From the NCBI GenBank assembly GCA_020060085.1, contig JAGVAW010000034.1, forward strand, positions 1 through 48,540: a DNA stretch of 48,540 nucleotides, given 5' to 3'. The notes under the pieces are model-generated. The model was not told the DNA's origin and did not search any database. It saw only the letters and a program-made list of their open reading frames with translations. This document shows positions 6,049 through 30,499 of the stretch, one piece after another (the stretch's first letter is position 1; every line of letters starts with the position of its first letter). The position numbers were made by a program, and so were the translations under genes. The DNA is from Desulfobacterales bacterium (lineage in GTDB: Bacteria; Desulfobacterota; Desulfobacteria; Desulfobacterales; Desulfatibacillaceae).

Positions 6049-6061
6049 GGCATCTCCTATT

Positions 6062-9099: not shown

Positions 9100-9103
9100 T
9101 TTA

Positions 9104-11748: not shown

Positions 11749-11805
11749 TTTCCCAACGCCGTGAAGGCAGGCCCCGGAGAGCAGTCTCCGGGGCCTTGTG
11801 CCAAG

Positions 11806-12192: not shown

Positions 12193-12240
12193 GTTTGCTT
12201 CTCCTTTGTTTGACTTGTTTTGGCTTTTGACCAAAACTGT

Positions 12241-14308: not shown

Positions 14309-17300
14309 CAGGCCACCATCCTTTCAAAGAGGCTTTCCAGCTTGGCCAGAATTCTGTCGTCCTCGAACTGCATCAACTGTATGGCCTTTGCCGGGCACGC
14401 TGCCGCGCAGACTCCGCAGCCCCGGCAGCGGGCCGGGTCTATCTGGGAGTAACCTTCGGCATTGATAAAGGGCACACCAAAGGGGCAGGCGCGTACACAA
14501 ATAAGGCAGGCCGCGCATTTCTGGCCGTCCACCTTTGCCACGGCAGCGCCGGTGCTTATTTCATTAGCGGCCAGCATTGTTCTGGCCCGCGATGCTGCTG
14601 CCTGAGCCTGGGCAATGCTGTCACGGATGTTTTTGGGAGAGTGGGCCGTGCCTGCCACAAAAAAACCGGGAACCGGTAGATCCACAGGCCGCAGCTTCAC
14701 ATGATCCTCAAGGAAGAAGCCGTCCTTTGTTCTGGGCAGCTTGAAGATGAGCGCCAGGTCTTCATTGTTTTCATCATCTGCAACAAGCCCGGTGCTCAAG
14801 CAAAGGCAGTCGGCCTCCACTTCCAGGTCCGCGCCTATAACCGGCTCGTTGAACACCACCTTCACGCATCCGTCCTGGCCCTGGTCCACCTTTGGCGGGG
14901 CATCCTGGGAGTAGCGCACGAAAAACACGCCCTTTTGCCGAGCTTCCTGATAGTAATCCTCCGAAAGACCAAAGGTCCTCATGTCCCTGTAAAGCACGAA
15001 AACGCGGGCATCGGGATTAATCTCAACAATCCTCAAAGCGTTTTTGACAGCAGCCTGGCAGCATATTCTTGAGCAGTTGGGGTTTTCCGGGCTTCTGGAG
15101 CCAACGCACTGAATCATCACAACATTGGACCAGGATTTGACCTTTTCGGGCTTGTCCTCAATAAGGGAATCCATCTCAAGCTGGGTGATAACCGAATCGG
15201 ATTTGCCAAGCAGATACTGATCCGGGTGGTTGCCAAGCGCGCCCGTGGCCAGCACGGTCACGCCGTGCTCAACCTGGCGGTAGAACATTTGAGGCCCCAC
15301 CTGCATTCCTGTTTTAAACATTCCAGGTATGCCACTATGATCAACTATGATTGCGCCTGTGATTACCGATATGTTTTCACTGGCCTTGACCTTTTCAACA
15401 AGCCCGTTGACAAAGGCCCTTACATCTTCGCCCTCAAGGGTTTTGCGGAGTTTTGCCGCATTTCCCCCCAGCTTTGCGCTGCGCTCTGCCAGGTAAACCT
15501 TGTGGCCGTGCCGGGCAAGCTCCAGGGCTGTGGTCATCCCTGCAACACCGCCACCCACCACCAGGGCGTTCTTGTTCATGGGTAAAGTGCTGTCTGCCAG
15601 GGGGCGGGCCATTTTTGCCGCGCCCACAGCCATGCGGATAAGGCTTTGGGCCTTTTTGGCCGCAAGCTCCGGCTCGGCAGCATGAACCCAGGTTATCTGG
15701 TCGCGGATATTGGCCATTTCCAGCAGGTAAGGGTTTAAGCCCGCCTTTCTTATGGTGTCCTGGAAGCGCTTTTCATGGGTTCTTGGAGAGCAGCCGCCAA
15801 TGACAACCCGGTTTAACTTTTCGCTTTCCACAATGCTGGTAATGCGTTCCATGGACTGGCTGCTGCAACCATGCCCCACGCTTTGGGCCACAACCACGCC
15901 GGGAAGGCTTTGCGCATAATCGGCAAGCTTTTGCACATCAAGCACTCCGCCTATGTTCTCGCCGCAGTCGCACAAAAACACGCCCACGCGAGGCTCCTCG
16001 CCGGAAATATCCCTTTCAGGCGGAAATTCCTCTTCCTGGCCGGAGAGGATGCCCTTTGCCGAAAGGTCGCCCGCTGCCATGCAGGCTGCCGCACTACCCT
16101 GGACCATTGTTTCGGGAATATCCTTGGGACTTTCAAAAAGCCCGGCAACATAGATGCCCGGCTTTGATGTGGCGACAGGCGTAAAGCTTCCGGTTTTGGC
16201 AAAGCCGTGGCTGTCAAGATCAATGCCCAGGATGTTTGCCATTTCGCGGGTCTGCTGGCCCACCAAAAACCCGGTGGAGAGAACCACCATGTCAAATTCT
16301 TCGCAGACCTGTTGGGCCTGGCCTTCGGGCAGATATTGAATTTCAAGGCCCTGGGCACCCTGTTTGTGAACAACGCTGTGGGGGCGGCACCTTACAAGAC
16401 GGACTCCGAAGCGCTCCTTTGCCTGCTGGAGGTAAAGCTCGTAGTCTTTGCCAAAGGTGCGCATGTCCATGTAGAAGATTGTGGCCTCGATGCTGTCCTG
16501 GAAGCGCTCCTTTGTCACCATTGCCTCTTTGAGGGCAAACATGCAGCAGGCGCTTGAGCAGTAGGACTGGGCTCCCTTCTGGATGCCCCTGGACCCGATG
16601 CACTGTATCCAGGCTATCTTTTGGGGCTGTTTTTTGTCCGAGGGGCGGACAAGCTGGCCGGAAGTGGGGCCTGAAGCCGAAAGAATGCGCTCGTATTCAA
16701 GGCTTGTAACAATATCGGGCTGGCTGGAGTAGCCCAGATAATCCAGCCCCTTGGGGTCAAAAACCTCTGCCCCTGGGGCAAGCACTATGGAGCCGCATTC
16801 AATGGTGCGGGTTTTTTCCGTATCATCAGGAACAATGGCCTTTGCAGGGCAGATATCCACAAGGGCCTGCAAATCCTTGCAGGCTGCCATGTCAACGGAA
16901 TAAGCCTGGGGTATTGCCTGGGGATAGCGCATGCAGGTTGGTGCCCTGTGGTCAAGGCCGGGGGTAAAGCGCACGCAATCGGGAAAATGCTTAAAACACT
17001 CGCCGCAGGCCGTGCATTTTTCCATGTCAATGTAGCGGGGAGCTGTTTTAACGGTCACGGAGAAGGCCCCGCGCTCGCCCTCCATGCCGGTTATCTGCGT
17101 CATGGTCAAGAGTTCAATGCGCTCCTGGCGACCGCTTTGTGAAAGGTGCGGCGAAAGTGTGCACAGGTCGCAGTTGTTTGTCGGAAAGGTGCGGTCAAGC
17201 TGGGTCATAAGACCGCCGATGGAGCGGGCGCTGTCAACAAGAACAACGCTGTGCCCAGACTCGGCAAGGTCCAGCATTGTTCGTATTCCGCCCATTCCAC

Positions 17301-17358
17301 CGCCGACAACCAGCACCCTGTTGTCCGGTTTGTTATCAAGTTGATATGACATATTCAC
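14308..17358 (-). CDS. hdrA: Tandem HdrA-like FAD/Fe-S flavoprotein (1016 aa)
   Basis: Two GxGxxG FAD folds (VLVVGGGMGGIRTMLDLAESGH, ALVVGGGVAGMTTALELARHGH). An internal HdrA N-domain motif VGVFLCDCGENIGG. Blocks QCIGSR...CSSACC and QCVGSR...CSRICC. C-terminal CAACLICVRACP and CRGCGVCAAACP. Confidence 0.85.
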   Translation of the reverse strand: MNMSYQLDNKPDNRVLVVGGGMGGIRTMLDLAESGHSVVLVDSARSIGGLMTQLDRTFPTNNCDLCTLSPHLSQSGRQERIELLTMTQITGMEGERGAFSVTVKTAPRYIDMEKCTACGECFKHFPDCVRFTPGLDHRAPTCMRYPQAIPQAYSVDMAACKDLQALVDICPAKAIVPDDTEKTRTIECGSIVLAPGAEVFDPKGLDYLGYSSQPDIVTSLEYERILSASGPTSGQLVRPSDKKQPQKIAWIQCIGSRGIQKGAQSYCSSACCMFALKEAMVTKERFQDSIEATIFYMDMRTFGKDYELYLQQAKERFGVRLVRCRPHSVVHKQGAQGLEIQYLPEGQAQQVCEEFDMVVLSTGFLVGQQTREMANILGIDLDSHGFAKTGSFTPVATSKPGIYVAGLFESPKDIPETMVQGSAAACMAAGDLSAKGILSGQEEEFPPERDISGEEPRVGVFLCDCGENIGGVLDVQKLADYAQSLPGVVVAQSVGHGCSSQSMERITSIVESEKLNRVVIGGCSPRTHEKRFQDTIRKAGLNPYLLEMANIRDQITWVHAAEPELAAKKAQSLIRMAVGAAKMARPLADSTLPMNKNALVVGGGVAGMTTALELARHGHKVYLAERSAKLGGNAAKLRKTLEGEDVRAFVNGLVEKVKASENISVITGAIIVDHSGIPGMFKTGMQVGPQMFYRQVEHGVTVLATGALGNHPDQYLLGKSDSVITQLEMDSLIEDKPEKVKSWSNVVMIQCVGSRSPENPNCSRICCQAAVKNALRIVEINPDARVFVLYRDMRTFGLSEDYYQEARQKGVFFVRYSQDAPPKVDQGQDGCVKVVFNEPVIGADLEVEADCLCLSTGLVADDENNEDLALIFKLPRTKDGFFLEDHVKLRPVDLPVPGFFVAGTAHSPKNIRDSIAQAQAAASRARTMLAANEISTGAAVAKVDGQKCAACLICVRACPFGVPFINAEGYSQIDPARCRGCGVCAAACPAKAIQLMQFEDDRILAKLESLFERMVA

Positions 17359-17440: not shown

Positions 17441-18313
17441 CTACAATCCAGCCACATCCAGAATTGCCGGGATGCGATGCTCCCATCCCAGAGTCTGGAT
17501 AAGCACGCCCTGGGCAATGCCCTTTAGCGCGGCAACAGTTTCGCCTGCTATGCGGATGCCCTCGTTTTCGCGGTCAGCAGACTTGCGGATGCGGCTGATG
17601 AGGGCATCGGAGATTTTTGCAGACGGCTCGTTTGTGGCAATGTAGCGGGCAACAGCCACCGATTTCAAAAGAAACACGGTGGGAATGACCGGCACACCAA
17701 GGGCCGCGGCTTTTTTCAGAAAATCCGCGCTGGAATCCACATCAAAAACCGGCGGTGTGATTACAAAGCGGCATCCGGCATCAATCTTTCTTTTGGCAAG
17801 GGCCAGTTCTTCTTCCATTGCCTTTTGGTCTGCAAATGGAGCTATGGTGCAGCCGGTTTTAAAGCTGGGAACCCCGTCAAGCTCGAAACCGGCCATGTCC
17901 TTGCCTTCCACAAGCGAGCGGATGGCACCGATAAGCTCAATCTCGTCAATGTCATTCACGGGCCTGGCTTCGTGGTGATCGCCCACTTCCATTTCCTCGC
18001 CGTGAACAACAAGTATGTTCTCAATGCCAAGCACATGGGCGGCAAGGAGATCCCCCTGAAGGGCCATTCTGTTGCGGTCGCGGCAGTAAACATGGATTAT
18101 GGCCTCAATGCCCTGGCGGTGCATGAGCACGCCGCCTGCAAGGGCACTCATGCGCATGATTCCATTGTCCATGTCCGGGATGACAATGGCATCCACCCTG
18201 TCCTTTATGCGGCGGGCGTCAGTTACCAGCCGCGAGATATTGACGCCCTTGGGCGTGTGCATCTCGGCCAGCACGACAAATTCATCTGATTGCAATCGTC
18301 TTGAAAAACTCAT
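17441..18313 (-). CDS. MTHFR-family protein (second, divergent MetF-like paralog)
   Basis: Translation VVLAEMHTPKGVN...DAIVIPDMDNG...IHVYCRDRNRMALQGDLLAAHVLGIENILVV parallels the metF product (VTRDRNRLAMQSEILSAYAHGIDTMLCL). RBS GAAGGGAAAA lies upstream. Confidence 0.7.
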   Translation of the reverse strand: MSFSRRLQSDEFVVLAEMHTPKGVNISRLVTDARRIKDRVDAIVIPDMDNGIMRMSALAGGVLMHRQGIEAIIHVYCRDRNRMALQGDLLAAHVLGIENILVVHGEEMEVGDHHEARPVNDIDEIELIGAIRSLVEGKDMAGFELDGVPSFKTGCTIAPFADQKAMEEELALAKRKIDAGCRFVITPPVFDVDSSADFLKKAAALGVPVIPTVFLLKSVAVARYIATNEPSAKISDALISRIRKSADRENEGIRIAGETVAALKGIAQGVLIQTLGWEHRIPAILDVAGL

Positions 18314-18371: not shown

Positions 18372-19697
18372 CTACATTGCTGTTTCCGGATGGAACACAT
18401 TGACCTCTTTCAAATCATCTCCAAGGTACTCGCGCTCATTTGGGCCCAAAATGCCAAGCGAAAGGCAAATCAAGGTCCAAAGGTGTACGGTGCTGTAATT
18501 GCCGCCGAAATGGTGAGCCAGATCATGAATCTGGGCATGGCAGTTGTGGCAGGCGGCAATGCAGTAATCTGCTCCTGTTTCTATTATCTGGTCGAACTTA
18601 TACTTGCCGTAGGCCCGCCTTGCGTCCTGGTAGCCGGACTGCAAAAAGCCGCCTCCTCCACCGCAGCAGTAGTTGTTGCTTTTGTTGGGGGTCATGTCGA
18701 TGAAGTTTTCCTCGCCTACAACGCTTTTGACCACAAAGCGCAGGTCGTCTGCTGCCGAATCCCCGAAGCTCTTGCGGATTATCTGGCAGGGGTCCTGCAC
18801 CGTGAACTTTATTTTCAAATCCTTGTTCCAGTCGGAATTAACCTTGAGCTTGCCCTCGCGAATCCACCGGGCGTAGTATTGATAGATTGAAGCCACTTCA
18901 AAGTTGTGCTCGATGCCAAATTTTTTCAGTCCGGCCCGGACTGAGAATGTTATGTGCCCTCATTCGGTGTTGAGAAAGACCTTGCACCCAAGGTCATCGG
19001 CCTGCTTTGCGGATATGCGGGTGATGTGCTCCCATGCGTCATTGTCCGCCAGGAACAGGCAGTAGTTTTCGCCGCCCCAGCCCTTGCTGCCGTATGTCCA
19101 GTCCGCTCCCACAACATGGAGTATCTTCCACAGGGGCAAAAGCTCGTCAGGCTCTGTCACCGGCTCGCGGGAGTTCTGGTTGAGGAAAAAGTGCGCCCCC
19201 TGCTTGTCTATGGGCGCTTCCATTTCCGCAAATTCGGGCTGGGCCTCACGGTACTCCTCAAGCACATCGCCCACCACAAATTCAAAATCCTCCGGCGAGG
19301 TGCCCATTGCGCTGCAAGAGTCATTTCGCAGAGCCATGTCGCAGGATCCCAGAATGCCCTTGGGCCTTGTCTCGCGCGGCCATGTTGTCCGTGCGTTGTA
19401 AACAAGCTGGGGAATGTCGATCTGCATGGGGCAAACAAAAATGCAGCGCTGGCACATGGTGCACATCCACACCCAGGGCGTGCTTGTAATCTCTTCATCC
19501 ATGCCTAAAGCCGCCATGCGGAGGAACTTGCGCGGGTCCATGTTCTCCAGCCCGGTGGCCGGACAACCCGAAACGCAGGCCCCGCAGGTTAAACACAGGT
19601 TGAGATTGCCACCTTCAGGAAGAATCTCCTTTACCTTGTTTAAAAAGGTGCTTTTTTTCGGACTTTTCAGTTGAATTAAAGCAGTTGACATATCCAT
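18372..19697 (-). CDS. DsrK/HdrD-like Fe-S oxidoreductase (2x[4Fe-4S] + CCG domain), probable selenoprotein with in-frame TGA at 18960..18962
   Basis: ORFs 18960..19697 and 18372..18896 are in the same frame. They are separated only by one TGA and 21 sense codons. The N-terminal part has CLTCGACVSGCP and CTMCQRCIFVCP. The C-terminal part has a complete CCG domain (C-X39-CCG-X36-CxxC: DPC...YCCGGGGG...CHNC). A hairpin follows the TGA. Confidence 0.65.
18926..18944 (-). promoter_or_regulatory. Candidate bacterial SECIS hairpin
   Basis: The mRNA reads UGA-N15-UCAGUCCG-GGC-CGGACUGA. This gives an 8-bp perfect stem and a G-rich apical loop that starts 23 nt after the UGA. Confidence 0.5.
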
Positions 19698-19763: not shown

Positions 19764-20009
19764 TTAACAGGACTTTTTTATCCGCACCCGGAAGAAGTAG
19801 TCGCTGCCTTCTGTAACCTCCATGAGAACAACCTCGTAGGAGTCGGCTGGCAGCAGCTTGAAAAGATCTTTTCTCACATCCGGGTCGGATCCCAATATCT
19901 CCAGAATTTCAGCAGGCAGCATCTTGTTAAAGACCTTGGTCATCTTGAGCAGGGAAAGGGGAGAGATGCTGCCCCTAAAATCCAGTAAATGATTTGTTAT
20001 TTCGTCCAT
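19764..20009 (-). CDS. TusA/SirA-fold small protein lacking the catalytic Cys (first gene of operon A)
   Basis: Translation MDEITNHLLDFRGSISPLSLLKMTKVF...ILEILGSDPDVRKDLFKLL. The layout is TusA-like, but SP replaces the CP motif. The ATG at 20009 is preceded by GGGAGAGG. Confidence 0.6.
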   Translation of the reverse strand: MDEITNHLLDFRGSISPLSLLKMTKVFNKMLPAEILEILGSDPDVRKDLFKLLPADSYEVVLMEVTEGSDYFFRVRIKKSC

Positions 20010-20044
20010 GGTCGCCTCTCCCTTCAAAGTCTGGCCAGGGTAAA

Positions 20045-20059
20045 GCAAGACGCGGGCCA
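20045..20059 (-). promoter_or_regulatory. Sigma54 (-24/-12) promoter of operon A
   Basis: The minus strand reads TTGGCCCGCGTCTTGCT, against the consensus YTGGCACGrNNNTTGCW. GG and GC have the correct spacing. The site lies about 36 nt upstream of the ATG at 20009. Confidence 0.6.
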
Positions 20060-20216
20060 AAAATGACGCAATGCAATAAAAATTTTAATTATCCAATAAA
20101 ACCAAAATGTTGATAATGATAAAAATAATGGTTATCTTGTTATTGTTGCTAAAGGCGGATTGTTTTGTTAAAAGCAGGCGCCTTTACATGTGTAAAGGCT
20201 TAACAGGAGTTGCTTA

Positions 20217-21611
20217 ATGATTGGCAGGGAGTTGAACAGATATTGGGAGACTGTTGTTAACACCATCAGCGATGGCATAATGATAGTCAACACCAGCGGG
20301 GCCATTGTATCTGTAAACGCGGCAATGGAGCGCATTACAGGGTACAGCCGCGAGGAGCTGGTGGGCTGCAAGTGCACCATGTTAAACTGTGCAGCCTGCG
20401 AGCAGACCCTTGCAAGCGGCGGAGAGCACTGGTGCGGGCTTTTCCGCTTCGGCTCCATAACCCAGAAAAAATGCCAGATTCAGCGTAAAGACGGTTCTTA
20501 TCGCAATGTTCTCAAAAATGCGGCCATTTTGAAGGACGATGATGGTGTTGTCATAGGCGCTGTCGGCACCCTGGCCGATCTGGAGGAAATCACAAAGCGG
20601 GAGACCCAGCTTGAGGCTTTCAGGAAAGAGTTGCGCTCCGAGGACAGCTTTCATGGAATAATAGGGCATTCTCCGGCCATGCAGCAGGTTTTCAATCTTA
20701 TCGAAAACGCGGCCCGGTCGGATGCCCCTGTCATAATCTACGGCGAAAGCGGCACAGGCAAGGAGCTTGTGAGCCGGGCCATCCACGATTTAGGCGAAAG
20801 AAATGACAAGCCCTTTGTAAAGGTCAATTGTGCAAGCCTTACCGAGTCTCTACTGGAAAGCGAGCTTTTCGGCCATGTGAGGGGGGCTTACACCGGGGCT
20901 TACAAGGACAGGCTTGGCCGCTTTGAAATGGCGGACACAGGCAGCATCTTTTTAGATGAAATCGGCGAACTGCCCATTTCCACACAGGTCAAGCTTTTGC
21001 GGGTGCTTGAGGACAAGGTTGTTGAGAGGGTTGGCGCGAGCCGCCCAATTTCAACGGATGTGCGCATTGTTTCGGCCACCAACCGGGATCTGGCCAAGCT
21101 TGTGGAGAACGGCAGCTTCCGCAAGGATTTTTATTTCCGCATCAATGTAATTCCCATAGTCCTGCCGCCCTTAAGAAACAGAACCGAGGATATTCCGCTT
21201 CTGGCCGAGGCTTTTTTCCGCAAAATGCGCTTAAAAAGCGGCAAGAACATAATGGGCATAAGCCGCGACACAATGGATTTGCTCGCAAATCACGACTGGC
21301 CCGGCAATGTGCGGGAGCTTAAAAGCGCCTTTGAGTACGCCTTTGTTACCTGCTCCGGGCCAATGGTGGAGCCTCATCATATGCCTGCGGCAATTTCTGC
21401 GCCCAAAAGACCTGCTGCGGCACAGCCCAAGCCCAAGCGATCCATGGATCTCAAGGAAATCGAAAAGCAGGAGCTTCTGGAAGCCCTTGAACAGGCCGGG
21501 GGCAATCAGTCCAAAGCCGCAGAGCTTCTTGGTGTTTCGCGGGTCACTGTCTGGAACCGCATGAAGCGCCACAAAATAGACTCAAAAATTAAGATAGAGG
21601 TAAACGGATAA
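20217..21611 (+). CDS. Sigma54-dependent transcriptional activator (PAS - AAA+ - Fis-type HTH), no REC domain
   Basis: Walker A GESGTGKE, GAFTGA-type loop GHVRGAYTGA, ESELFGH, and C-terminal GGNQSKAAELLGVSRVTVWNRMKRH. Confidence 0.9.
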   Translation: MIGRELNRYWETVVNTISDGIMIVNTSGAIVSVNAAMERITGYSREELVGCKCTMLNCAACEQTLASGGEHWCGLFRFGSITQKKCQIQRKDGSYRNVLKNAAILKDDDGVVIGAVGTLADLEEITKRETQLEAFRKELRSEDSFHGIIGHSPAMQQVFNLIENAARSDAPVIIYGESGTGKELVSRAIHDLGERNDKPFVKVNCASLTESLLESELFGHVRGAYTGAYKDRLGRFEMADTGSIFLDEIGELPISTQVKLLRVLEDKVVERVGASRPISTDVRIVSATNRDLAKLVENGSFRKDFYFRINVIPIVLPPLRNRTEDIPLLAEAFFRKMRLKSGKNIMGISRDTMDLLANHDWPGNVRELKSAFEYAFVTCSGPMVEPHHMPAAISAPKRPAAAQPKPKRSMDLKEIEKQELLEALEQAGGNQSKAAELLGVSRVTVWNRMKRHKIDSKIKIEVNG

Positions 21612-21821
21612 ATCCTGCGATTTTCTTTTGTTCCTCCCCGCACCCCAGCAAGGTTGCTCCGCCACTGCCTTGCAATATAAGCAAAGGTGGCTTAAGATTT
21701 TTCATTGTTAAAAAAATGCAATGCCGTGGCAGCATGGTAAGATTGACGCGCACAAACAAGGCGGCAGCTTATAAGTTAAAAGACATCACGGATATTGAGC
21801 CAAATAAAACCGGGGGCTGAT

Positions 21822-23474
21822 ATGGCGGCAGGTGTAAACCAAAGACCAACAGGGGATTTGATGCAGGAGAATCAAGAACCTGCCGGGCAGAAATACCAAG
21901 AAAAGGCAGACAGGCCGTTTGCTTTTGATTCCAAACCCTGGAGCATTCTTCTTGCAGATGATGAGCCGGATATCCGCGATGTGATGTCCCTGGCCCTTGA
22001 GGATGCGGGATACCAAGTTCATGTTGCCCAAGACGGGGTGCAGGCTCTTAAAATCTGCGGTAGCACGGACATAAGGATAGTAATTACAGACATCCGCATG
22101 CCGGGCATGGACGGCATTGAGCTGCTTGAAAAGGTGAAGGCTGCTTTTGAAGATATTGAAGTGATTGTGATGACCGCCTTTGGCGAGATGGACCTTGCCA
22201 TAACGGCATTGAGGCTTGATGCTTCTGACTTCATAAACAAGCCGGTTAACAATGATGCCCTTTTTATGGCCATAAGCCGGGCGAAAAACCGTTATTTAAG
22301 CCGCAAAAAGCTAAAAGACCACGCCAAACTGCTGGAAAGGGAGAATGCTCTCACCGCCCTTGAGCTTACCAAAAGCCTTGATTATCAGAGAAGCCTCATC
22401 CAAAGCTCCATGGACGGCATTTTGGGCTGCGATGAAAATGGCTGCGTTGCCCTTGTGAACAAAAGCCTTGAAGCAATGCTTGGTTTTGGCCGGGAAGAGA
22501 TGATGGGCAGACCTGCCCTTGAAATGCTCTTTACCTCCCAGGATGCCAAAAAATTTGAAGAGGACAGGGCCGGCCAAAAATACGGTGGGCCGGGACGCCT
22601 TTTTATTTATGAAACCCGGATTCAGCAGAAATCCGGCAAGAGCCTGCCTGTGCAGGTTTCCTCGACAGATCTTCCTGGAGGCGGCATTGTATGCTTTTTC
22701 AGGGATTTACGCCAAATACGCCGCCTTGAGCGCGAGTTTGAAGACCAGGCTCGAATACTTTTGCAGGACAAGATGATGTCTTTGGGAAGGCTTGCTGCAA
22801 GCGTGGTTCATGAGATAAACAATCCCCTTTCAGGGGTATTGAACTATGCACGGCTCATGAAAAAGATGCTTGCCACGGGCAAAACAAGCCCTGCTGATTT
22901 GGCAGACTTTGAAAAATATCTTGAGCTTGTTGAAAGCGAAACAAGCCGCTGTACCCAGATTGTGGGAAACCTGCTGGCCTTTTCCCGCCGTTCCAAAACC
23001 GAGATGGAGCCTGTGGATGTCGCCCTGCTCGTGGATCGCTGCGTGATTTTGAGCCAGCACAAGCTTTCCCTTTCGCAAATTGACTTGAAGGTAACCGTAA
23101 AAAAGCCCCTGCCCTTGGTGATCGGAAACTTTAACCAGCTTGCCCAGTGCGTGATCAACCTCATACTTAATGCTGTGGATGCCATGCCCCAGGGAGGAGA
23201 GCTTGAGATAGGTGCGGAATACGACCCAAAATCAAACACGGTAAGGCTTAAAGTTGCAGATACGGGCACAGGCATAAAGCCCGATGACCTGGAGAGGATT
23301 TTCGAGCCTTTTTTCACAACCAAGAAGCAGGGTTACGGGGTGGGCCTTGGCCTTTCAACAGTTTACGGAATAATGGAGCGCCATAAGGGATCTGTTGCCG
23401 TTATCAGCACGCCCGGAGAAGGCTCTGTTTTCACCCTGGTTCTGCCTGCGGACAAACAATCTGCCTCACAATAG
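21822..23474 (+). CDS. Hybrid sensor histidine kinase (REC-PAS-HisKA-HATPase)
   Basis: Motifs ILLADDEPDIRD...VITDIRMPGMDG...NKP, H-box VHEINNPL, and NLILNAVDAM, DTGTGI, GVGLGLSTVYGIM. The start is uncertain. The ORF track begins at a TTG at 21795, and the ATG at 21822 is used here. Confidence 0.85.
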   Translation: MAAGVNQRPTGDLMQENQEPAGQKYQEKADRPFAFDSKPWSILLADDEPDIRDVMSLALEDAGYQVHVAQDGVQALKICGSTDIRIVITDIRMPGMDGIELLEKVKAAFEDIEVIVMTAFGEMDLAITALRLDASDFINKPVNNDALFMAISRAKNRYLSRKKLKDHAKLLERENALTALELTKSLDYQRSLIQSSMDGILGCDENGCVALVNKSLEAMLGFGREEMMGRPALEMLFTSQDAKKFEEDRAGQKYGGPGRLFIYETRIQQKSGKSLPVQVSSTDLPGGGIVCFFRDLRQIRRLEREFEDQARILLQDKMMSLGRLAASVVHEINNPLSGVLNYARLMKKMLATGKTSPADLADFEKYLELVESETSRCTQIVGNLLAFSRRSKTEMEPVDVALLVDRCVILSQHKLSLSQIDLKVTVKKPLPLVIGNFNQLAQCVINLILNAVDAMPQGGELEIGAEYDPKSNTVRLKVADTGTGIKPDDLERIFEPFFTTKKQGYGVGLGLSTVYGIMERHKGSVAVISTPGEGSVFTLVLPADKQSASQ

Positions 23475-23499
23475 GGCCTTTTTCGACAAGCAAAAAACC

Positions 23500-24900
23500 T
23501 TACAAAACCTTTTCCGCCTCATCCTCTGACACCCACTGGGGCTTTATCGCAAATTTCTTCATCCTGTTCCATACCGTAACCCGCGAAATACCCAAAAGCC
23601 TGGCTGCTTCGGACTGATTTCCCCCTGCCTGGGCAAGGGCCTCCATCAATTCCTGTTTCTGGCGCTCATCCCTGCTTGCGGGCCTGGTCTGGCTCTTTCC
23701 GGGACCTGCCGGTTTTGCTGCTGCCATTGCAGGCGGAAGGTGGCGCGGCTCGATAAGGCTTTCGTGGCAGGTCACAAATGCGTATTCAAGGGCGCTTTTA
23801 AGCTCCCGCACATTGCCCGGCCAGGGGTAGTCCATGAGTCTTGCCATTGCCTGGCTGCTTATGCCGTCAATGTGCCGTTCACTTTTTAAGGATATCTGCC
23901 GGAAAAAAGACTGGGCAAGAATTGGAATGTCTGATGCCCTTTTTCTTAAAGGCGGAACAATAATTGGAATGACATTTATCCGGTAATAGAAATCCTCCCT
24001 AAAAAGACCCTGCCGGACAAGGGAGTCAAGATCCTTGTTGGTGGCTGAGATAATGCGAACATCCACCGGTACGGGCTGATTGTCCCCAACCCTTTCCACA
24101 ACCCGCTCCTCTAAAACCCGCAAAAGTTTGACCTGAGTGGACAGGGGCAGATCCCCTATTTCATCGAGAAAAATATCCCCCTGCTTTGCTGCCTCAAAGC
24201 GGCCTATGCGGTTGCGGTAGGCCCCTGTGTAAGCCCCTTTTACATGGCCGAAAAGCTCGCTTTCCAGAAGGGTTTCATTTAAGGCCGCACAGTTAAATTT
24301 TACAAAGGGCTTGGTTTTGCGGGGGCCAAGTTCATGAATGACCTGGGCCACAAGCTCCTTGCCCGTGCCGCTTTCGCCAAGGATGATGACAGGCGCATCC
24401 GACTGGGCAGCGTTTGTGATGTGATCGTACATCTGGAGCATGACCGTTGACTGACCCGTGATGCCGTGAAAGCCATCCCGCGACTGAAGCTCCCGGCGGA
24501 ACACCTCTATCTGGTGATCCTTTTCGATGAGCTCTGAAATATCGGTCACGGTTTCCACCGCCCCCATTGCATGGCCCTGCGCATCGTAGAGCAGGGAGGC
24601 GTTTTTAAGTACATGAATACGCCTGCCGCTCTTGCGGCGCAGGGTGCATTTGCGTTCGGCCAGCGAGCCGTTGCGAAAAAGAACGCAGTAGCGGTTGCCC
24701 TTGTGGGCACGGGCGTAGTCAAAAATATCGCAGTGAAGAATGGCGCAGGAGTGCCCAAGTAGCTCATCGCGGGAAAAGCCTGTTATGCGCTCCATGCCCC
24801 GGTTCACGGAAACAATCGTCCCGCCGGAATCCACTATCATTATTCCATCCTGAATAGTGTCAACCACCTTTTTCCAATAGGTGTTCAAATCTTCAATCAT
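23500..24900 (-). CDS. Sigma54-dependent transcriptional activator (PAS - AAA+ - Fis-type HTH), paralog of 20217..21611
   Basis: Its N-terminus is near-identical in pattern to the other activator (MIEDLNTYWKKVVDTIQDGIMIVDSGGTIVSVNRGMERITGFSRDELLG). It also has GESGTGKE, GHVKGAYTGA and GGNQSEAARLLGISRVTVWNRMKKF. Confidence 0.9.
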   Translation of the reverse strand: MIEDLNTYWKKVVDTIQDGIMIVDSGGTIVSVNRGMERITGFSRDELLGHSCAILHCDIFDYARAHKGNRYCVLFRNGSLAERKCTLRRKSGRRIHVLKNASLLYDAQGHAMGAVETVTDISELIEKDHQIEVFRRELQSRDGFHGITGQSTVMLQMYDHITNAAQSDAPVIILGESGTGKELVAQVIHELGPRKTKPFVKFNCAALNETLLESELFGHVKGAYTGAYRNRIGRFEAAKQGDIFLDEIGDLPLSTQVKLLRVLEERVVERVGDNQPVPVDVRIISATNKDLDSLVRQGLFREDFYYRINVIPIIVPPLRKRASDIPILAQSFFRQISLKSERHIDGISSQAMARLMDYPWPGNVRELKSALEYAFVTCHESLIEPRHLPPAMAAAKPAGPGKSQTRPASRDERQKQELMEALAQAGGNQSEAARLLGISRVTVWNRMKKFAIKPQWVSEDEAEKVL

Positions 24901-25102
24901 TGCCTGCCCCTGTTAAAAAATTAACAATACCACATGAACAATCGTTTATATTTTTAACATGGTAAGCGCAAGTTTTTTTTGCTTTTTTGGGTCAACGCCT
25001 TTCCCCGTCTGTTCGCATGGCAAAATATTATCCCGTAATTTCAACTCTATGAGCAGTTATTGCCTTTAAAAAAAAAGTTTTTTGACACCTTCCTTCATTT
25101 TT

Positions 25103-25118
25103 GGGCACCCGGCTTGCA
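25103..25118 (+). promoter_or_regulatory. Sigma54 (-24/-12) promoter of operon B
   Basis: GGGCACCCGGCTTGCA, with GG at 25104..25105 and GC at 25116..25117, giving 12-nt spacing. It lies 36 nt upstream of the TusA-like start and divergent from the activator gene. Confidence 0.65.
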
Positions 25119-25153
25119 ATTAATAAGGGCGGAATAACTCATGGAGGTGAGCT

Positions 25154-25396
25154 TTGGGAAGACAGGCAAAACAAATTCTGGATTTGAGGCGTTACATCCC
25201 GCCCCTTTCCCTGCTCAAGCTCACCGAAACCTTTCGGCACATGCGCTCCAATGGGGTTCTGGAAATCATGGGTCAGGACCCGGACACCTGGACGGATCTG
25301 TTCAAGGTGCTTCCATCAGGCTCCTACGAGCTTGTGGGCGTACAGGGAAAAATTGAAAACGGGGACGGCTACAAGGTGACAATAAGGAAAAAGTAA
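25154..25396 (+). CDS. TusA/SirA-fold small protein lacking the catalytic Cys (first gene of operon B)
   Basis: Translation ILDLRRYIPPLSLLKLTETF...VLEIMGQDPDTWTDLFKVLP is a paralog of 19764..20009. The start is a TTG, 6 nt after GGAGG. Confidence 0.6.
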   Translation: MGRQAKQILDLRRYIPPLSLLKLTETFRHMRSNGVLEIMGQDPDTWTDLFKVLPSGSYELVGVQGKIENGDGYKVTIRKK

Positions 25397-25416: not shown

Positions 25417-28400
25417 ATGTCCATCCGTATAGGCTGCTATGTCTGCCATTGCGGCATCAACATCGCCCACAAGGTAAGGGTTGCCGAGGTGGCTCAATAC
25501 GCACTTGGCCTTGAAGGCGTTGTGGTGGCAAGGGACTACAAGTTCATGTGCTCTGATCCGGGCCAGGAGATGATCGAAAAAGACATCCGTGAATTTGGTT
25601 TGAACAGGGTGGTGGTTGCCTCCTGCTCGCCCAGGCTGCACGAAAAAACCTTTCGAGGGGCCTGCGAGAGGGGCGGCATAAACCCCTATCTTTTTCAGAT
25701 GGCATCTGTGCGGGAGCAGGTTTCGTGGGTGACGGCAGACGAAAACGAAGCCACCAGCAAGGCCAAGCACCTTGTTAACGCTGCTGTGCGCCGGGTGGGG
25801 CAGCACCGGGAACTGGACAAGCGCGAGGTTGTTGTTCACCCGGATGTACTTGTGGTGGGCGGCGGAATTGCCGGAATGCAGGCGGCATTGGACATAGGGG
25901 CCTCCGGCCACAAGGCCTACCTTGTGGAAAAAAGCACAACCATCGGCGGCCACATGCTTCAGTTCGACAAAACCTTTCCAACCCTGGACTGCGCTGCCTG
26001 CATAGGCACCCCCAAAATGGTGGATGTGGCCCAGAACTCCTGCATTGAGCTTCTTTCGTACAGTCAGGTGGAGGAGGTCAGCGGCTACATCGGCAACTAC
26101 ACGGTCAAAGTCCGCCGGAATCCCCGCTTCATCAAGGAAGGCATATGCACAGGATGCGGTGAATGCACCAAGGTCTGTCCGGTCATACGGCCAAGCGAAT
26201 GGGACGAGAATCTTGCAACCCGCAAGGCCATTTACCGCTCCTTCCCCCAGGCCGTGCCCATAACCTACTGCATAGAAAAAAAGGATCGCGCCCCCTGTGT
26301 CAGCGCCTGCCCGGCAGGAATCAATGTCCAGGGCTATGTTCAGCTTATAGGCCAGGGAAAATACCGCGAAGCAATAGAGCTTATACGCCAGAGGATGCCT
26401 CTGCCGGGGATTCTGGGCCGGGTCTGCCCTCATCCCTGCGAGGAAAAATGCCGCCGCAGCGAGCTTGATTCGCCTGTGGCAATCCGCGACCTCAAACGCT
26501 TTGCCGCTGATCAGGTGGACATTAAATCCCTGCCCCGGCCTTTAATTTCCGAGCGGCCCGAAAAGGTGGCCATCATAGGTTCAGGCCCAGGCGGGCTTTC
26601 GGCTGCTTATTTTCTGCGGCTTGCAGGTTTTTCTGTAAGCATTTTTGAAAAGCTCTCCGTGCTTGGCGGAATGTTAAGGGTTGGCATTCCAGATTATCGC
26701 CTGCCAGCGTGCGTTCTGGATAAAGAGATAGAGGCCATTCTGGATCTGGGCGTGAAAGTTGAGACAAACAAGGCTCTGGGAAAAGATTACTCCTTAAAGG
26801 AGCTTGAAGAAAAAGGCTTTGCCGCGGTTCTTCTGGCAATAGGCGCCCACGGGGGTGCGGATATGGAAATCCCCGGAGAAAAGGATTGTGAAAATGTCAT
26901 CAATGCCGTGGATTTTTTGCGTGAGATAAACCTTGGTTCCCGCAAAAAGCCCGGCGATAGGGTCGCAATAATAGGCGGCGGCAATGTGGCCATTGATGCG
27001 GCCCGCATGGCCAAAAGGCTTGGCTGCAAAGAGGTGACTGTTGTTTACCGCCGCACCCGCGAGCAGATGCCTGCTTATAAAGATGAAATTGAAGGTGCCC
27101 TGGCCGAGGGCGTTAAAATGCTCTTTCTCTGCGCACCCTTACAGGTGGAAGGTGCAGGGGGGCGCGCCACGGGGCTGAAATGCCAGCGCACGGAGCTTGG
27201 CCTGCCGGACAAAAGCGGGCGCAGAAGCCCCCAGCCTGTAGAAGGCTCGGAATTTGTAATTGAGTGCGATGCAATAATTCCGGCAATCGGCCAGAAAATG
27301 GATGCCCCCTGGGCAGGGGGCGACAGCAGCCTTGCAGTTAACAGGCGTGGCTACTTTGAGGCAGACCCCAATACCATGCAGACAGGCAACGACTTTGTGT
27401 TTGCCTGCGGAGATGCGGTAACAGGCCCGGCCACGGTTATTGAAGCTGTTGCAGGGGGCCGCCGGGCAGCCCTTGCCATTGCCGATTATTTGAACAGGGG
27501 CAAAAGGGCCTCCCTTGCCGGGCAGGAGGAACAAAAAGCAGAAAAAGAGCCGGAATGGGCGGCCATTCCTCCTGGCCTTGCCCCCCAAAAGCGCGCCCAG
27601 GCCGAGCACCTTGACCCAAAAACCCGGATTTTGGGCTTTGACGAGGTTGAAGCAGCCTTTGGTGAGGATGCGGCAAGGGCAGAGGCGTCCCGTTGCCTTA
27701 ACTGCGGCGTATGTTCCGAGTGCATGGAATGCGTAAAGGTCTGCGAGGCTAAGGCCATTGATCACTCCATGAAACCGGAAATCCGCGAAATCAAGGTGGG
27801 CAGCATAATTCTGGCAACAGGCTACGATCTTTTTGACCCATCGGTTTTAAAGCCTTTGGGTTATGGCGTTTATCCTAATGTTTTCACAAGCCTGGAGTTC
27901 GAACGCCTCTCCAATGCCACAGGCCCAACAGGCGGGGAGATTTTGATTCGCGACCAAAACGGGCAACTGACCAAAAAACCCAAAAGCGTTGCAATATGCC
28001 ATTGCGTGGGCAGCCGGGATGTGAACCACCACGAATACTGCTCACGGGTGTGCTGTATGTATGCGCTCAAATACGGACACCTCATAAAAGAAAAGGTGGG
28101 GCACAACACGCAGATATATGACTTTTTTATTGATATGCGCTGCTTTGGCAAGGGCTACGAGGAGTTTTTCCGGCGCTGTCAGGAAGAGGGCAGCCAGTTT
28201 ATAAGGGGCAAGGTGGCCCAGGTTACAGACAGGGCAAAAACTCCCGAAGAAGAAGGAAAGCTAATAGCCATAGCAGAGGACACCCTGCTTGGCCGGCGCG
28301 TGCGCGTGCCTGTGGACATGGTCATCCTTTGCCCTGCAATGGAGGCCCGCAAAGATGCACCTGCTGTTGGGCGGATTTTCGGGGTAAACCAGGGCGCGGA

Positions 28401-28827
28401 CGGCTTTTTTCTGGAAGAGCATCCCAAGCTTGGGCCGCTCAACACGGCAACGGACGGCGTTTTTCTGGCCGGTGCCTGCCAGTCTCCCAAAGACATTCCC
28501 GACACTGTGGCCCAGGCCTCCGGCGCGGCGGCCAAGGCCCTTTCCCTTGCAACAAAGGGCAGGGTTCCGGTTCCTTCGGCCATTTCGTGGATTGACCCGG
28601 ATATGTGCGCGGGCTGCAAAACCTGCATAGGCCTTTGTCCTTACGGCGCAATCGAGTTTGACGAGTTTGCCCAGGTTTCGGTGGTAAACGAGGCGGTATG
28701 CAAGGGCTGCGGAAGCTGTTCGGGCTTCTGCCCCTCCGGTGCAGCCCAGGTGAAGCACTTCAACAAAAAGCAGGTCTTTGCAGAGTTCGAGGGCATGATG
28801 GAAGGCCTGTGTGCAACCAAAAACTGA
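25417..28827 (+). CDS. HdrA-like flavoprotein fused with a GltD-type NAD(P)H-binding module (HdrL-like, 1136 aa)
   Basis: HdrA N-domain IGCYVCHCGINIA, FAD fold VLVVGGGIAGMQAALDIGASGH, and ferredoxin motif CTGCGECTKVCP. It is then GltD-like (CVSACPAGINVQGY...GRVCPHPCEEKCRR, KVAIIGSGPGGLSAAYFL, VAIIGGGNVAIDAAR). It returns to HdrA-like CHCVGSR...CSRVCC, followed by CAGCKTCIGLCP and CKGCGSCSGFCP. Confidence 0.85.
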   Translation: MSIRIGCYVCHCGINIAHKVRVAEVAQYALGLEGVVVARDYKFMCSDPGQEMIEKDIREFGLNRVVVASCSPRLHEKTFRGACERGGINPYLFQMASVREQVSWVTADENEATSKAKHLVNAAVRRVGQHRELDKREVVVHPDVLVVGGGIAGMQAALDIGASGHKAYLVEKSTTIGGHMLQFDKTFPTLDCAACIGTPKMVDVAQNSCIELLSYSQVEEVSGYIGNYTVKVRRNPRFIKEGICTGCGECTKVCPVIRPSEWDENLATRKAIYRSFPQAVPITYCIEKKDRAPCVSACPAGINVQGYVQLIGQGKYREAIELIRQRMPLPGILGRVCPHPCEEKCRRSELDSPVAIRDLKRFAADQVDIKSLPRPLISERPEKVAIIGSGPGGLSAAYFLRLAGFSVSIFEKLSVLGGMLRVGIPDYRLPACVLDKEIEAILDLGVKVETNKALGKDYSLKELEEKGFAAVLLAIGAHGGADMEIPGEKDCENVINAVDFLREINLGSRKKPGDRVAIIGGGNVAIDAARMAKRLGCKEVTVVYRRTREQMPAYKDEIEGALAEGVKMLFLCAPLQVEGAGGRATGLKCQRTELGLPDKSGRRSPQPVEGSEFVIECDAIIPAIGQKMDAPWAGGDSSLAVNRRGYFEADPNTMQTGNDFVFACGDAVTGPATVIEAVAGGRRAALAIADYLNRGKRASLAGQEEQKAEKEPEWAAIPPGLAPQKRAQAEHLDPKTRILGFDEVEAAFGEDAARAEASRCLNCGVCSECMECVKVCEAKAIDHSMKPEIREIKVGSIILATGYDLFDPSVLKPLGYGVYPNVFTSLEFERLSNATGPTGGEILIRDQNGQLTKKPKSVAICHCVGSRDVNHHEYCSRVCCMYALKYGHLIKEKVGHNTQIYDFFIDMRCFGKGYEEFFRRCQEEGSQFIRGKVAQVTDRAKTPEEEGKLIAIAEDTLLGRRVRVPVDMVILCPAMEARKDAPAVGRIFGVNQGADGFFLEEHPKLGPLNTATDGVFLAGACQSPKDIPDTVAQASGAAAKALSLATKGRVPVPSAISWIDPDMCAGCKTCIGLCPYGAIEFDEFAQVSVVNEAVCKGCGSCSGFCPSGAAQVKHFNKKQVFAEFEGMMEGLCATKN

Positions 28828-28846
28828 CAAGAAAAGGAAACCCTTT

Positions 28847-29290
28847 ATGGAAAGCCAACAGGAAAACAGGCAGGATTTTGAGCCTTTCATAGTCGCCTTT
28901 GTCTGCAACTGGTGCACCTATACAGCAGCAGACCTGGCCGGAACAAGCAGGCTGCAAATTCCAAAGAATGTTCACTTAATCCGGGTAATGTGCACAGGCA
29001 TGGTGGACAGCCAGTACATAATAAAGGCACTTCTGGAAGGCGCGGACGGCGTGCTTGTGAGCGGCTGCCACCCCGGCGACTGCCATTACATAAACGGCAA
29101 TTTTAAGGCAAGGCGCCGTATGAAGCTTTTACAGGCAATGCTCGCAACAATGGGCATAGAGCCGCAAAGGCTGCGCCTTACCTGGATAGGGGCAAGTGAC
29201 GGAATACAGTTTGCCAAAACCATGCGCGAGCTTGTGGAGCAGGTGCGCCAGCTTGGCCCCAACCCCGGCGCTGCCCGCTCTGTTGCATAA
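28847..29290 (+). CDS. mvhD: MvhD/FlpD-like [2Fe-2S] protein (second copy)
   Basis: Translation EPFIVAFVCNWCTYTAADLAGTSRLQIPKNVHLIRVMCTGMVD...GADGVLVSGCHPGDCHY. The ATG at 28847 is preceded by AAAGGAAA. Confidence 0.85.
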   Translation: MESQQENRQDFEPFIVAFVCNWCTYTAADLAGTSRLQIPKNVHLIRVMCTGMVDSQYIIKALLEGADGVLVSGCHPGDCHYINGNFKARRRMKLLQAMLATMGIEPQRLRLTWIGASDGIQFAKTMRELVEQVRQLGPNPGAARSVA

Positions 29291-29341: not shown

Positions 29342-30499
29342 ATGGCCCAAACCGCAACAATAGATGCGCCGAATAAGGATATTTCGCTGGGTATAAAAAA
29401 CTTCCTCGGCCAGCTTTTAAAATCCGGCCTTGCAGAAGCTGTGCTGCTTCCTTTGCGCCAGCCCGGATCAACAACCGTGATGCCCGGCCTTGTAACAGAC
29501 CCGGATGCCCTGGAGCAGGCAGACCTTTTGGCCCCTGTTGCTCCTTTGTCCGCAGCCCGCATGGCTGCAAGGCTCACCCGCAGGTCAACTGGCAAACCTG
29601 TGGCTGCGGTGCTGCGCCCCTGCGAGGTCCGGGCCTTTATCGAGCTTGTAAAGTTCAACCAGGCAAAAGCGGAGGACATTCTTCTTATAAGTGCGGACTG
29701 CGCTGGCGTTATGTCCAACAAGGATTACGGCACCTTTGCCGCAGCAGAGGCAAGCCCTCCCGGAGAGCGGTTCTGGAAGGCTGCGGGCAGGGGAGACGCA
29801 ACGCAGGTGGACGGCTTTTCCCTGGCCTCGGCCTGCAAGGTCTGCGAACAGCCATTCTCTTCAAGCGCTGACATAAGCCTTGGTATTCTGGGCGCAGATG
29901 GTTCTGTTGGCATTCCAGCAACTGCCAACACGCAAAAGGGCGAAGATGCCCTCAAAAAGCTTGGCCTTGACCAATCTCCACCAAATAAGGCTCACCAGAA
30001 AGTCCTTTCAATGCTTGTTGAAAGGCGCAGCCAGGCAAAACAGGCGCTGTTTGCCACAATGGAAGAAAAGGTCAACAGCCTTGGAGCTTTGAATAAATAT
30101 TTTGAAAACTGCGTCAACTGCTACAACTGCCGGGTAGCCTGCCCCATCTGCTATTGCAGGGAATGCGTTTTTTTAACCGATGCCTTTGATCATGATCCAC
30201 CCCTTTACCTTAATTGGGCTTTTAGGAACAAGGCAATCAAAATGCCTACAGACACGGCCTTTTTCCACCTCACGCGGCTTGCCCACATGAGCACTTCCTG
30301 TGTTGGCTGCGGCCAGTGCACAAACGCCTGCCCAAACGACATTCCTGTGGCAGACCTTTTCATCAGGGTATCTGCTGCAACCCAAAAGGCCTTTGAATAC
30401 CAGCCGGGGCAAAGCCTGGAGGAAAAGCCGCCCCTGGCGGTTTTTGAGGCTGACGAGTTTGGAGAGGCTGTGGGCATAAAAAGCAAGGCTGCATCCTGA
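29342..30499 (+). CDS. FrhB/FdhB-like Fe-S (flavo)protein with 2x[4Fe-4S] motifs
   Basis: Cys motifs CVNCYNCRVACPICYC and CVGCGQCTNACP. The N-terminal part (VAAVLRPCEVRAFIELVK...LLISADCAG) resembles the F420-hydrogenase beta family. The family call is tentative. Confidence 0.5.
   Translation: MAQTATIDAPNKDISLGIKNFLGQLLKSGLAEAVLLPLRQPGSTTVMPGLVTDPDALEQADLLAPVAPLSAARMAARLTRRSTGKPVAAVLRPCEVRAFIELVKFNQAKAEDILLISADCAGVMSNKDYGTFAAAEASPPGERFWKAAGRGDATQVDGFSLASACKVCEQPFSSSADISLGILGADGSVGIPATANTQKGEDALKKLGLDQSPPNKAHQKVLSMLVERRSQAKQALFATMEEKVNSLGALNKYFENCVNCYNCRVACPICYCRECVFLTDAFDHDPPLYLNWAFRNKAIKMPTDTAFFHLTRLAHMSTSCVGCGQCTNACPNDIPVADLFIRVSAATQKAFEYQPGQSLEEKPPLAVFEADEFGEAVGIKSKAAS

Follow-up and report, generated by a model that had tools for sequence, protein, structure and literature searches.

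How are two divergent operons for Hdr-type electron-bifurcating enzymes controlled, and why does each open with a gene for a small TusA-fold protein that lacks the sulfur-carrying cysteine? The question is raised by a contig of a Desulfobacterales bacterium (JAGVAW010000034.1), of which the whole stretch analyzed (48,540 nt, to which all coordinates refer) is called the window here. A listing of its open reading frames (ORFs) and Pfam scans of the main ORFs revealed two divergent units, operon A on the minus strand and operon B on the plus strand, flanking a regulatory core. We consider it likely that core and small genes make up two copies of one conserved cassette, composed of an activator, an enhancer, a promoter, and a small protein, which drives Hdr-type bifurcation operons. 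In cassette A, the small gene (19764..20009, minus strand; 81 amino acids, ATG start) is the first gene of operon A and diverges from the gene of activator A (20217..21611, plus strand). In cassette B, the small gene (25154..25396, plus strand; 80 amino acids, TTG start 5 nt past a GGAGG) heads operon B and diverges from the gene of activator B (23500..24900, minus strand).

Conserved predicted sigma-54 promoters precede both small genes

The window was scanned for TGGCAC-N5-TTGCW with at most one mismatch, by a simple match count and not with a trained matrix. Three sites were recovered, only two of which keep the invariant GG and GC. These are promoter A (TGGCCCGCGTCTTGCT, 20044..20059, minus strand) and promoter B (GGGCACCCGGCTTGCA, 25103..25118, plus strand), each with one mismatch, with the GG at -24 and the GC at -12 ten bases apart, and in the correct orientation. 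An earlier reading made without database searches (the sequence-only reading) had put sigma-54 elements before both small genes, and these proved to be the sole good -24/-12 sites in the 48.5 kb, oriented as claimed. It had also put both elements 36 nt from the start codons, while the gaps are in fact 34 nt (A) and 35 nt (B), and its 17-nt string for promoter A holds the element but starts one base further out (20043..20059 versus 20044..20059). The predicted transcription starts lie at about 20033 (minus strand) and about 25129 (plus strand).

A scan of genomes supplied 6 homologous loci and one of metagenomes 49, and more distant members were added by look-up; the small proteins from both scans (55 loci), together with the two of the window, form 41 clusters at 90% identity, the metagenome loci including near-duplicates. 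With at least 9 of 11 matches and an intact GG and GC required, about 47 of the 53 analyzable loci have a -24/-12 element, located 55 to 83 nt ahead of the conserved Leu-Asp codon, against a background of 0.07 elements per 500 nt, true sites included. The N5 spacer of the element varies freely among loci. Elements orthologous to promoter A keep its distance in L001, L007, L008, L014, and others, that of promoter B is identical in its ortholog L006, and the distant members L056, L057, L059, and L060 carry a -24/-12 element as well. Judged by this comparison, both predicted promoters are conserved rather than chance matches.

The spacer was also inspected for an attenuator after gene A, and its fold was unremarkable (z = -1.6); Rfam gave no match between positions 19000 and 26000. 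In L004, the leader from the sigma-54 element to the small gene contains a 116-nt array of AAGAGC/AAGATA hexamers (2506..2621).

A palindromic array adjoins the activator genes

When the promoter-upstream regions were searched for dyads, one palindrome dominated, TGTTAA-N3-TTAACA. It is perfect in 20 of 47 regions and, with up to two mismatches allowed, occupies positions -144 to -149 relative to the -24 element in 22 A-type loci. In both lineages, the activator start codon is directly adjoined by the full array, TGTTAA-N3-TTAACA-N2-TGTTAA-N10/11-TTAACA-N3-TTAACA. Perfect palindromes number 21 in the 466 kb of loci, and all but one of them (20) fall within the 14 kb upstream of these promoters.

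The predicted enhancer (upstream activating sequence) of cassette A (20166..20205) abuts the start of activator A. On the plus strand it reads TGTTAA-N11-TTTACA-tg-TGTAAA-ggc-TTAACA, and it contains the 15-bp palindrome TGTAAAggcTTAACA (20191..20205) at -146 from the -24 element. The predicted enhancer of cassette B (24911..24959) is a half-site array made up of TGTTAA-aaaa-TTAACA (TGTTAAaaaaTTAACA, 24911..24926), TGAACA (24935..24940), and TTAACA (24954..24959), for which 0.01 occurrence is expected by chance in the window; the B-type loci L009, L012, L017, and L038 have the same array beside the activator start. The arrays lie about 145 bp (A) and about 190 bp (B) upstream of the promoter, and between -145 and -270 across loci. 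Enhancer-binding proteins of the NtrC/Fis type have a C-terminal Fis-type helix-turn-helix and upstream sites 80 to 200 bp from the promoter; the activators here have such a domain (HTH_8), and the TGTTAA-N3-TTAACA arrays are candidate activator-binding sites.

Variants of the motif were seen as well. In one clade (L004 and L005), TGTAAA-N3-TTTACA occurs twice, 24 bp apart, and in L004 (2195..2246) two TGTAAAC-N-GTTTACA palindromes recur with a 24-nt period. The inner half-sites of enhancer A form a perfect 9+9 inverted repeat, GCCTTTACA-tg-TGTAAAGGC (20180..20199), 17 nt before the activator A start codon, and this repeat could also be an operator for autoregulation.

The activators are paralogs with a cysteine-rich PAS sensor

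Both activators consist of PAS, Sigma54_activat, AAA_lid, and HTH_8 domains, with E values of 1e-69 and 3e-70 for the sigma-54 interaction AAA+ domain (PF00158). They share 60% identity, the Walker A motif GESGTGKE, the GAYTGA loop, and an identical recognition helix (SRVTVWNRMK), so the proposal that two paralogous PAS-sigma54 activators diverge from the promoters stands. All 33 activators compared have a GAYTGA or GAFTGA loop. Since the two activators have the same recognition helix and the same half-site, cross talk is plausible, and cross-activation between cassettes A and B is possible.

The N-terminal PAS domain is the sole sensor of these proteins, which have no receiver domain. It has conserved cysteines at positions 52, 57, and 73 and usually a fourth, Cys60, giving the spacing C-x4-C-x2-C-x12-C. 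As regards the sensor, the one characterized relative is OrpR (DVU2106) of Desulfovibrio vulgaris Hildenborough, a PAS sigma-54 activator with a redox-sensitive [4Fe-4S] cluster bound by three conserved cysteines of its PAS domain; reducing conditions are required for it to drive its two divergent sigma-54 operons (PMC8359166). The window activators share with it the PAS, AAA+, and helix-turn-helix architecture without a receiver domain, the conserved PAS cysteines, and palindromes upstream of adjacent divergent sigma-54 operons in anaerobic Desulfobacterota, binding to the palindromes being known for OrpR and predicted here. By this analogy, they probably work like OrpR, sensing redox state through the PAS cysteines. 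In contrast to OrpR, which binds the motif GGGCGYRTTTTGCGCCC, serves two operons with one regulator, and targets orp operons that lack a leading TusA-like gene, the window has TGTTAA-N3-TTAACA, one regulator per operon, and Hdr/MetF operons as targets. Because motif, targets, and cysteine spacing all differ, we do not file the window activators in the OrpR family. An OrpR-like protein does occur in L057; it is about 42 to 44% identical to the window activators, has the OrpR cysteine spacing, and adjoins orp-type Nitro_FeMo-Co and CbiA-Fer4 genes. In an alignment with this protein, its PAS cysteines and those of activators A and B share one PAS loop, where the window proteins have an insertion and a different spacing.

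An activator of the same family (60 to 65% identity, full cysteine motif) is found in L061 (10893..12850), where it faces a gene for a 101-amino-acid STAS-like protein and not a TusA-like one; the spacer holds TGGCATgctttCTGCT, a sigma-54-like promoter, and TGTTAA/TTAAC half-sites. In L026, L029, L031, L032, L056, L057, and L060, the activator strand continues with HdrA, MvhD, in some cases a small MarR-like gene, and HdrA. Some of these genes appear split in the ORF calls, which may reflect selenocysteine codons.

Activator and small gene form an old, conserved pair

The pairing of activator and small gene was counted wherever the upstream sequence exceeded 700 nt (38 loci); 36 of these loci have an activator gene of the same family, divergently oriented and less than 1 kb away. 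The distant members L056, L057, L059, L060, and L063 show the same pairing. More remote members of the small-protein family have no adjacent divergent activator (L062, and L061, where the nearest one is 3.6 kb away). Neighbor-joining trees of 33 activator and small-protein pairs contain the same clades and are congruent (Mantel r = 0.84, a value reached by 0 of 2,000 permutations). Two of the checks suggested along with the sequence-only reading, the survey of related loci and the phylogenies, support its regulatory part.

In these trees, the window A pair is placed among loci carrying MetF/Hdr operons, and the window B pair clusters with the majority of HdrL-type loci (L013, L027, and L052). 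Since the A and B pairs fall in separate clades, the two cassettes are old paralogous lineages, and what the two units share is limited to the HdrA/MvhD/HdrBC families and the regulatory front end. The proposal of a duplicated and diverged cassette is therefore right as to paralogy but not as to a local duplication, each lineage being ancient and having orthologs in many organisms. A recent local duplication is ruled out by the trees and by the missing synteny in L007 (89% DNA identity), where gene order is shared as far as the 3' end of activator A and no further. The mirror-image arrangement is present in the window, as described earlier, but is not conserved elsewhere; because the L007 synteny stops after activator A, the adjacency is peculiar to this genome or to near relatives. 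On the evidence of gene order and trees, the cassette is an old regulatory unit widespread in Desulfobacterota, of which two copies stand back to back here.

The small proteins are a cysteine-less TusA subfamily

Small proteins A and B are 44% identical (E = 1e-21), share the motifs quoted for them in the sequence-only reading, and both exceed the gathering cutoff of Pfam TusA (PF01206; 35.5 and 32.1 bits, cutoff 28.6). Their paralogy is confirmed, and so is their relatedness at the profile level, which had been set as a test beforehand. They were also correctly described as lacking the persulfide cysteine, the CPxP position being Ser in A and Pro in B, and protein B has no cysteine at all. 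A confident AlphaFold2 model of protein A has a beta-alpha-beta-alpha-beta-beta topology with a predicted local distance difference test score (pLDDT) of 82, and its best fold match in the PDB (Foldseek) is YhhP/TusA (1dcj), with a template modeling (TM) score of 0.74.

A subfamily profile searched against 1.84 billion representatives (clusters at 50% identity) retrieved 354 clusters at E of at most 1e-3 and 125 at E of at most 1e-10; a word-indexed search with protein A alone had found 2 relatives only, and a 78-sequence alignment proved too diverse as a query for the locus scan. The closest protein hits (83% and 94% identity) bear names that suggest a Desulfatibacillaceae-like source, and activator A matched no record by exact sequence. 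The cysteine is missing at the CPxP position in 145 of the 150 best family representatives, and no other cysteine is conserved. The consensus is LDLRG-I-P-sLLK...F..M..gE.LEI.g.DPdtr.DLfKvLP..sYe. No NCBIfam model matches the small proteins, and the PDB sequence matches are canonical, cysteine-bearing TusA proteins plus a weak, unrelated hit to interferon (3piv, E = 0.0055). The cysteine-less TusA proteins are thus a distinct, coherent, and unnamed subfamily. In public databases, its members are labeled "sulfurtransferase TusA family protein," which is misleading because Cys-to-Ser TusA variants bind no sulfur (PMC11094781). Judging from the sequences, the small proteins cannot carry persulfide sulfur, the CPxP cysteine being absent. 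Nucleic acid binding was considered and found unsupported, the Alba-like fold matches having TM scores of only 0.5 to 0.6 and the isoelectric points ranging from 4.7 to 10.5.

The gene downstream of the small gene encodes HdrC (20 cases), MetF (7), HdrL (3), canonical TusA (2), or another protein (5), and an HdrA-MvhD pair is nearby in most of the longer loci examined. The two loci in which canonical TusA (with CPGP) follows are L003 (132..8754) and L005 (9986..12308); in L003, the canonical gene is succeeded by MvhD, split HdrA, HdrC, HdrB, DUF1638, and DsrE. The protein P0049 is a natural fusion of a cysteine-less and a canonical TusA domain. In L060, the small gene is monocistronic, has its own sigma-54 promoter, and diverges from an activator gene. 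DUF1638 was also seen 3' of the remote small-protein member in L061.

The two operons encode different predicted bifurcating enzymes

Both operons had been described as encoding HdrA-family, MvhD (FlpD), and CCG-domain proteins and as ending in kinase and REC genes, and Pfam bears this out. Operon A, all on the minus strand, continues after the small gene with an HdrC-like di-cluster ferredoxin (18960..19697), an HdrB-like protein with a single CCG domain (18372..18896, 174 amino acids), a first MetF paralog of the methylene-tetrahydrofolate reductase (MTHFR) family (17441..18313), an HdrA-family flavoprotein (14308..17358, 1,016 amino acids), MvhD (13865..14308), MetV (DUF5981, MTHFR C-terminal-like; 13164..13832), and a second MetF paralog, also MTHFR (12241..13167). 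Because all six families (MetF, MetV, HdrA, HdrB, HdrC, and MvhD) are clustered together, it has the full subunit set of a Moorella-type reductase, and by its Pfam content, it is a MetFV-HdrABC-MvhD methylene-tetrahydrofolate reductase cluster, the gene synteny of which is kept in more than 20 loci. The six families are those of the Moorella thermoacetica complex, as cited in PMC10553843. Operon A differs from the acetogen cluster, for which we found none of the following reported, in its second MetF paralog, its HdrC/HdrB, its control by sigma-54, its tail of REC, ACT, and kinase genes, and its leading TusA gene without the cysteine. Its HdrC-like and HdrB-like proteins (18372..19697) align to the N- and C-terminal halves, respectively, of HdrD-type proteins (HmcF, TmcB, and DsrK), and the two look like a split HdrD and not like classical HdrC plus a two-CCG HdrB. 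Copies of the pair with 77% identity lie inside a B-type operon in L013.

Operon B, on the plus strand, encodes after the small protein an HdrL-type protein (25417..28827, 1,136 amino acids), MvhD (28811..29290), an FrhB/FdhB-like Fe-S protein (29342..30499), an HdrA-family protein with a REC domain inserted at residues 195 to 304 (30557..33994), HdrC (34024..34587), and an HdrB with two CCG domains (34584..35492). The assignment to HdrL follows from the Fer4_20 and Pyr_redox_2 domains (a GltD-like NAD(P)H module) within the HdrA-like 1,136-residue protein and from the FlpD gene next to it. On this domain evidence, operon B is an HdrL/FrhB-like/HdrA(REC)/HdrCB cluster. The HdrL-MvhD pair was first defined in Desulfobacterium autotrophicum HRM2, where HdrL is a fusion of HdrA and a glutamate-synthase-type module (PMC2702500). 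In the first enzyme of operon B, HdrA is likewise fused to a glutamate-synthase-type module with an NAD(P)H site, and MvhD comes next, while operon B adds the FrhB-like protein, the HdrA with inserted REC, and HdrCB, and PMC2702500 describes neither a TusA-like gene nor a sigma-54 regulator.

The inserted REC domain has an intact DD / D / T / K signature, and HdrA with this insert is conserved in L006 (85%) and L013 (61%). Because the signature is intact, the kinases at the end of operon B, a PAS histidine kinase (35532..37367) and a REC-kinase (37364..38524), could phosphorylate the HdrA enzyme itself, in which case a bifurcating flavoprotein would be under posttranslational control.

Proposed circuit and its alternatives

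From the gene content, motifs, conservation, and coevolution established above, we infer a circuit with a redox signal, DNA binding by the activators, and a role for the small protein. The activator would occupy the array of TGTTAA/TTAACA half-sites, and when its cysteine-rich PAS domain is in a permissive (reduced) state, its AAA+ ring would contact sigma-54 RNA polymerase at the -24/-12 element and open the promoter. The sensor would probably be an Fe-S cluster, by analogy with OrpR. Opening of the promoter would switch on flavin-based electron-bifurcation machinery, namely the MetF-MetV-HdrABC-MvhD methylene-tetrahydrofolate reductase of the Wood-Ljungdahl pathway from cassette A and an NAD(P)H-linked HdrL-MvhD/FrhB-like/HdrA(REC)/HdrCB complex from cassette B.

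The -24/-12 matches and palindromes might instead have arisen by chance, with the operons read from sigma-70 promoters and the activators controlling other targets. Sigma-70-like hexamers are present in both AT-rich spacers, and the palindrome count for A in the window alone is nonsignificant (2 found versus 0.97 expected). We nevertheless regard this explanation as extremely improbable, as the element keeps its position in most loci although its N5 spacer varies, all but one of the perfect palindromes lie upstream of promoters, and the pairing with the activator is near universal. Several other points count against the proposed circuit, which is drawn from sequence conservation alone. The spacer of enhancer B is N4 rather than N3, and the outer half-sites are degenerate. 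An exact integration host factor (IHF) consensus (TATCAACATTTTG, 20103..20115, minus strand) lies between enhancer and promoter A as a tentative element; since the exact consensus is confined to the window and its closest relatives, L007 and L008, we rejected a conserved IHF site as a family feature. Congruent trees are expected for any tightly linked genes and are no proof of physical contact. No enzyme subunit is always downstream, HdrCB being absent in some loci and MetF in B-type ones, and the monocistronic small gene of L060 means that the linkage to enzymes is not constant. Finally, the OrpR cysteines are C52, C61, and C65 (C-x8-C-x3-C), compared with 52, 57, (60), and 73 here, and B-type activators have three PAS cysteines only; for both reasons, an Fe-S cluster in the PAS domain is not assured.

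Possible roles of the small protein

With some hesitation, and at somewhat less than an even chance, we favor the small protein as a noncatalytic docking or adaptor subunit for HdrA/MvhD complexes or their sulfur-relay partner, because HdrA-MvhD is usually nearby, canonical TusA is adjacent in L003 and L005, and P0049 fuses both domains. The TusA/DsrE relay of sulfur-oxidizing sHdr systems has the same fold, the same Pfam family, and a neighborhood beside Hdr-like complexes (PMC11094781); canonical TusA beside the small gene in two loci, with DsrE also present in L003, adds to the likeness. The differences are the absence of the CPxP cysteine, the defining motif of TusA, from nearly all of the best representatives and of LbpA and rhodanese here. 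DsrEFH offers a second analogy, since its DsrF and DsrH subunits are not persulfidated by TusA in vitro (PMC13293266), making it a sulfur-relay family with nonaccepting but obligatory partner subunits, a pattern that the P0049 fusion fits; a complex with cysteine-less TusA is, in contrast, hypothetical, and no catalytic partner is encoded nearby in the window. The adaptor role is also weakened by the negative outcome of a search for canonical TusA across the window and of the Pfam scans of its main ORFs for DsrE-family domains.

The small protein could alternatively belong to the regulator, binding the activator through its PAS or AAA+ domain and feeding back or relaying a signal, which seems to us rather unlikely. 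The activator is its most constant neighbor while the downstream enzyme genes vary, the two proteins coevolve, and the L060 small gene is monocistronic, with a sigma-54 promoter to itself and the activator gene diverging from it; the STAS-like gene faced by the L061 activator suggests a slot for small partner proteins. PspA, encoded first in the sigma-54 psp operon divergent from pspF, controls the activator PspF. The likeness to this pair is positional only (a gene that opens a sigma-54 operon and diverges from that of the activator), PspA having an unrelated coiled-coil fold and PspF no sensor domain, whereas the activators here have their own PAS. Adjacency is, moreover, trivial for the first gene of an operon, remote members lack an adjacent divergent activator, the wide range of isoelectric points leaves no common charge signature, and the P0049 fusion and the tandem canonical TusA genes point to sulfur-relay or enzyme partners. 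Very unlikely, in our estimate, is a role as TusA-like decoy, in which the small protein would dock on a scaffold or a cysteine desulfurase (IscS/NifS) and steer sulfur to Fe-S assembly for Hdr/Mvh. Escherichia coli TusA does dock on IscS (the complex 3lvj is among the fold matches), and NifU_N genes recur nearby (window 3293..3751, L057, L060, and L061), but these lie several kilobases off and outside the operon, no desulfurase gene is linked, and the connection is purely circumstantial. More speculatively, and again with little likelihood in our view, the small protein might be a pseudo-sulfur-carrier signaling partner of a new class of Fe-S/thiol PAS activators that reports the state of Hdr/Mvh or of cellular sulfane sulfur back to the activator. 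Together with activator, enhancer, and promoter, it would then make up a self-contained, mobile feedback module plugged in before different sets of bifurcating enzymes across Desulfobacterota.

What the cassette adds

Sigma-54 activators with divergent targets, OrpR-type Fe-S sensing by PAS domains, MetFV-HdrABC-MvhD, and HdrL are already known. As far as we searched the literature, the four-part cassette, the TGTTAA-N3-TTAACA enhancer, and the cysteine-less TusA subfamily as obligatory first gene are undescribed; no account of a cysteine-less TusA gene leading sigma-54 Hdr/MetF operons was found in full texts, the coverage of which was incomplete, so that a prior mention is possible. To our knowledge, very little is known on the regulation of flavin-based electron-bifurcating Hdr complexes or of the MetFV-HdrABC-MvhD step in anaerobes, and the physiological electron partner of MetFV-HdrABC-MvhD is still debated. 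The cassette offers a concrete, testable circuit, with an activator family bearing a probable redox PAS domain, a DNA motif, a promoter, and conservation across at least 41 distinct lineages of bacteria of the sulfate-reducer type. The small proteins, predicted to be coexpressed with bifurcating complexes, may be an adaptor or regulatory subunit still missing from these. For better annotation of Desulfobacterota genomes and metagenome bins, the enhancer motif and the profile of the subfamily are ready to use.

Signaling genes and other neighbors

The REC-PAS hybrid kinase that the sequence-only reading had noted between the activators is indeed there (21795..23474, plus strand; REC-PAS-HisKA-HATPase in Pfam), and homologs of it are convergent with B-type activators in L009 and L013. 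The signaling tail of operon A (7636..12234, minus strand) comprises a stand-alone REC protein (11806..12234), an ACT protein (10645..11748), a PAS histidine kinase (9104..10645), and a REC-PAS kinase (7636..9099). The first three of these follow MetF2 in nearly all A-type operons (L011, L018, L023, L033, L034, L039, L041, and L055). Beyond the tail, operon A is adjoined by an orp-like set (3293..6066 and 7023..7535, both on the minus strand) composed of the NifU_N scaffold gene, two CbiA/ParA plus Fer4 proteins, and DUF134, plus a PocR sensory protein.

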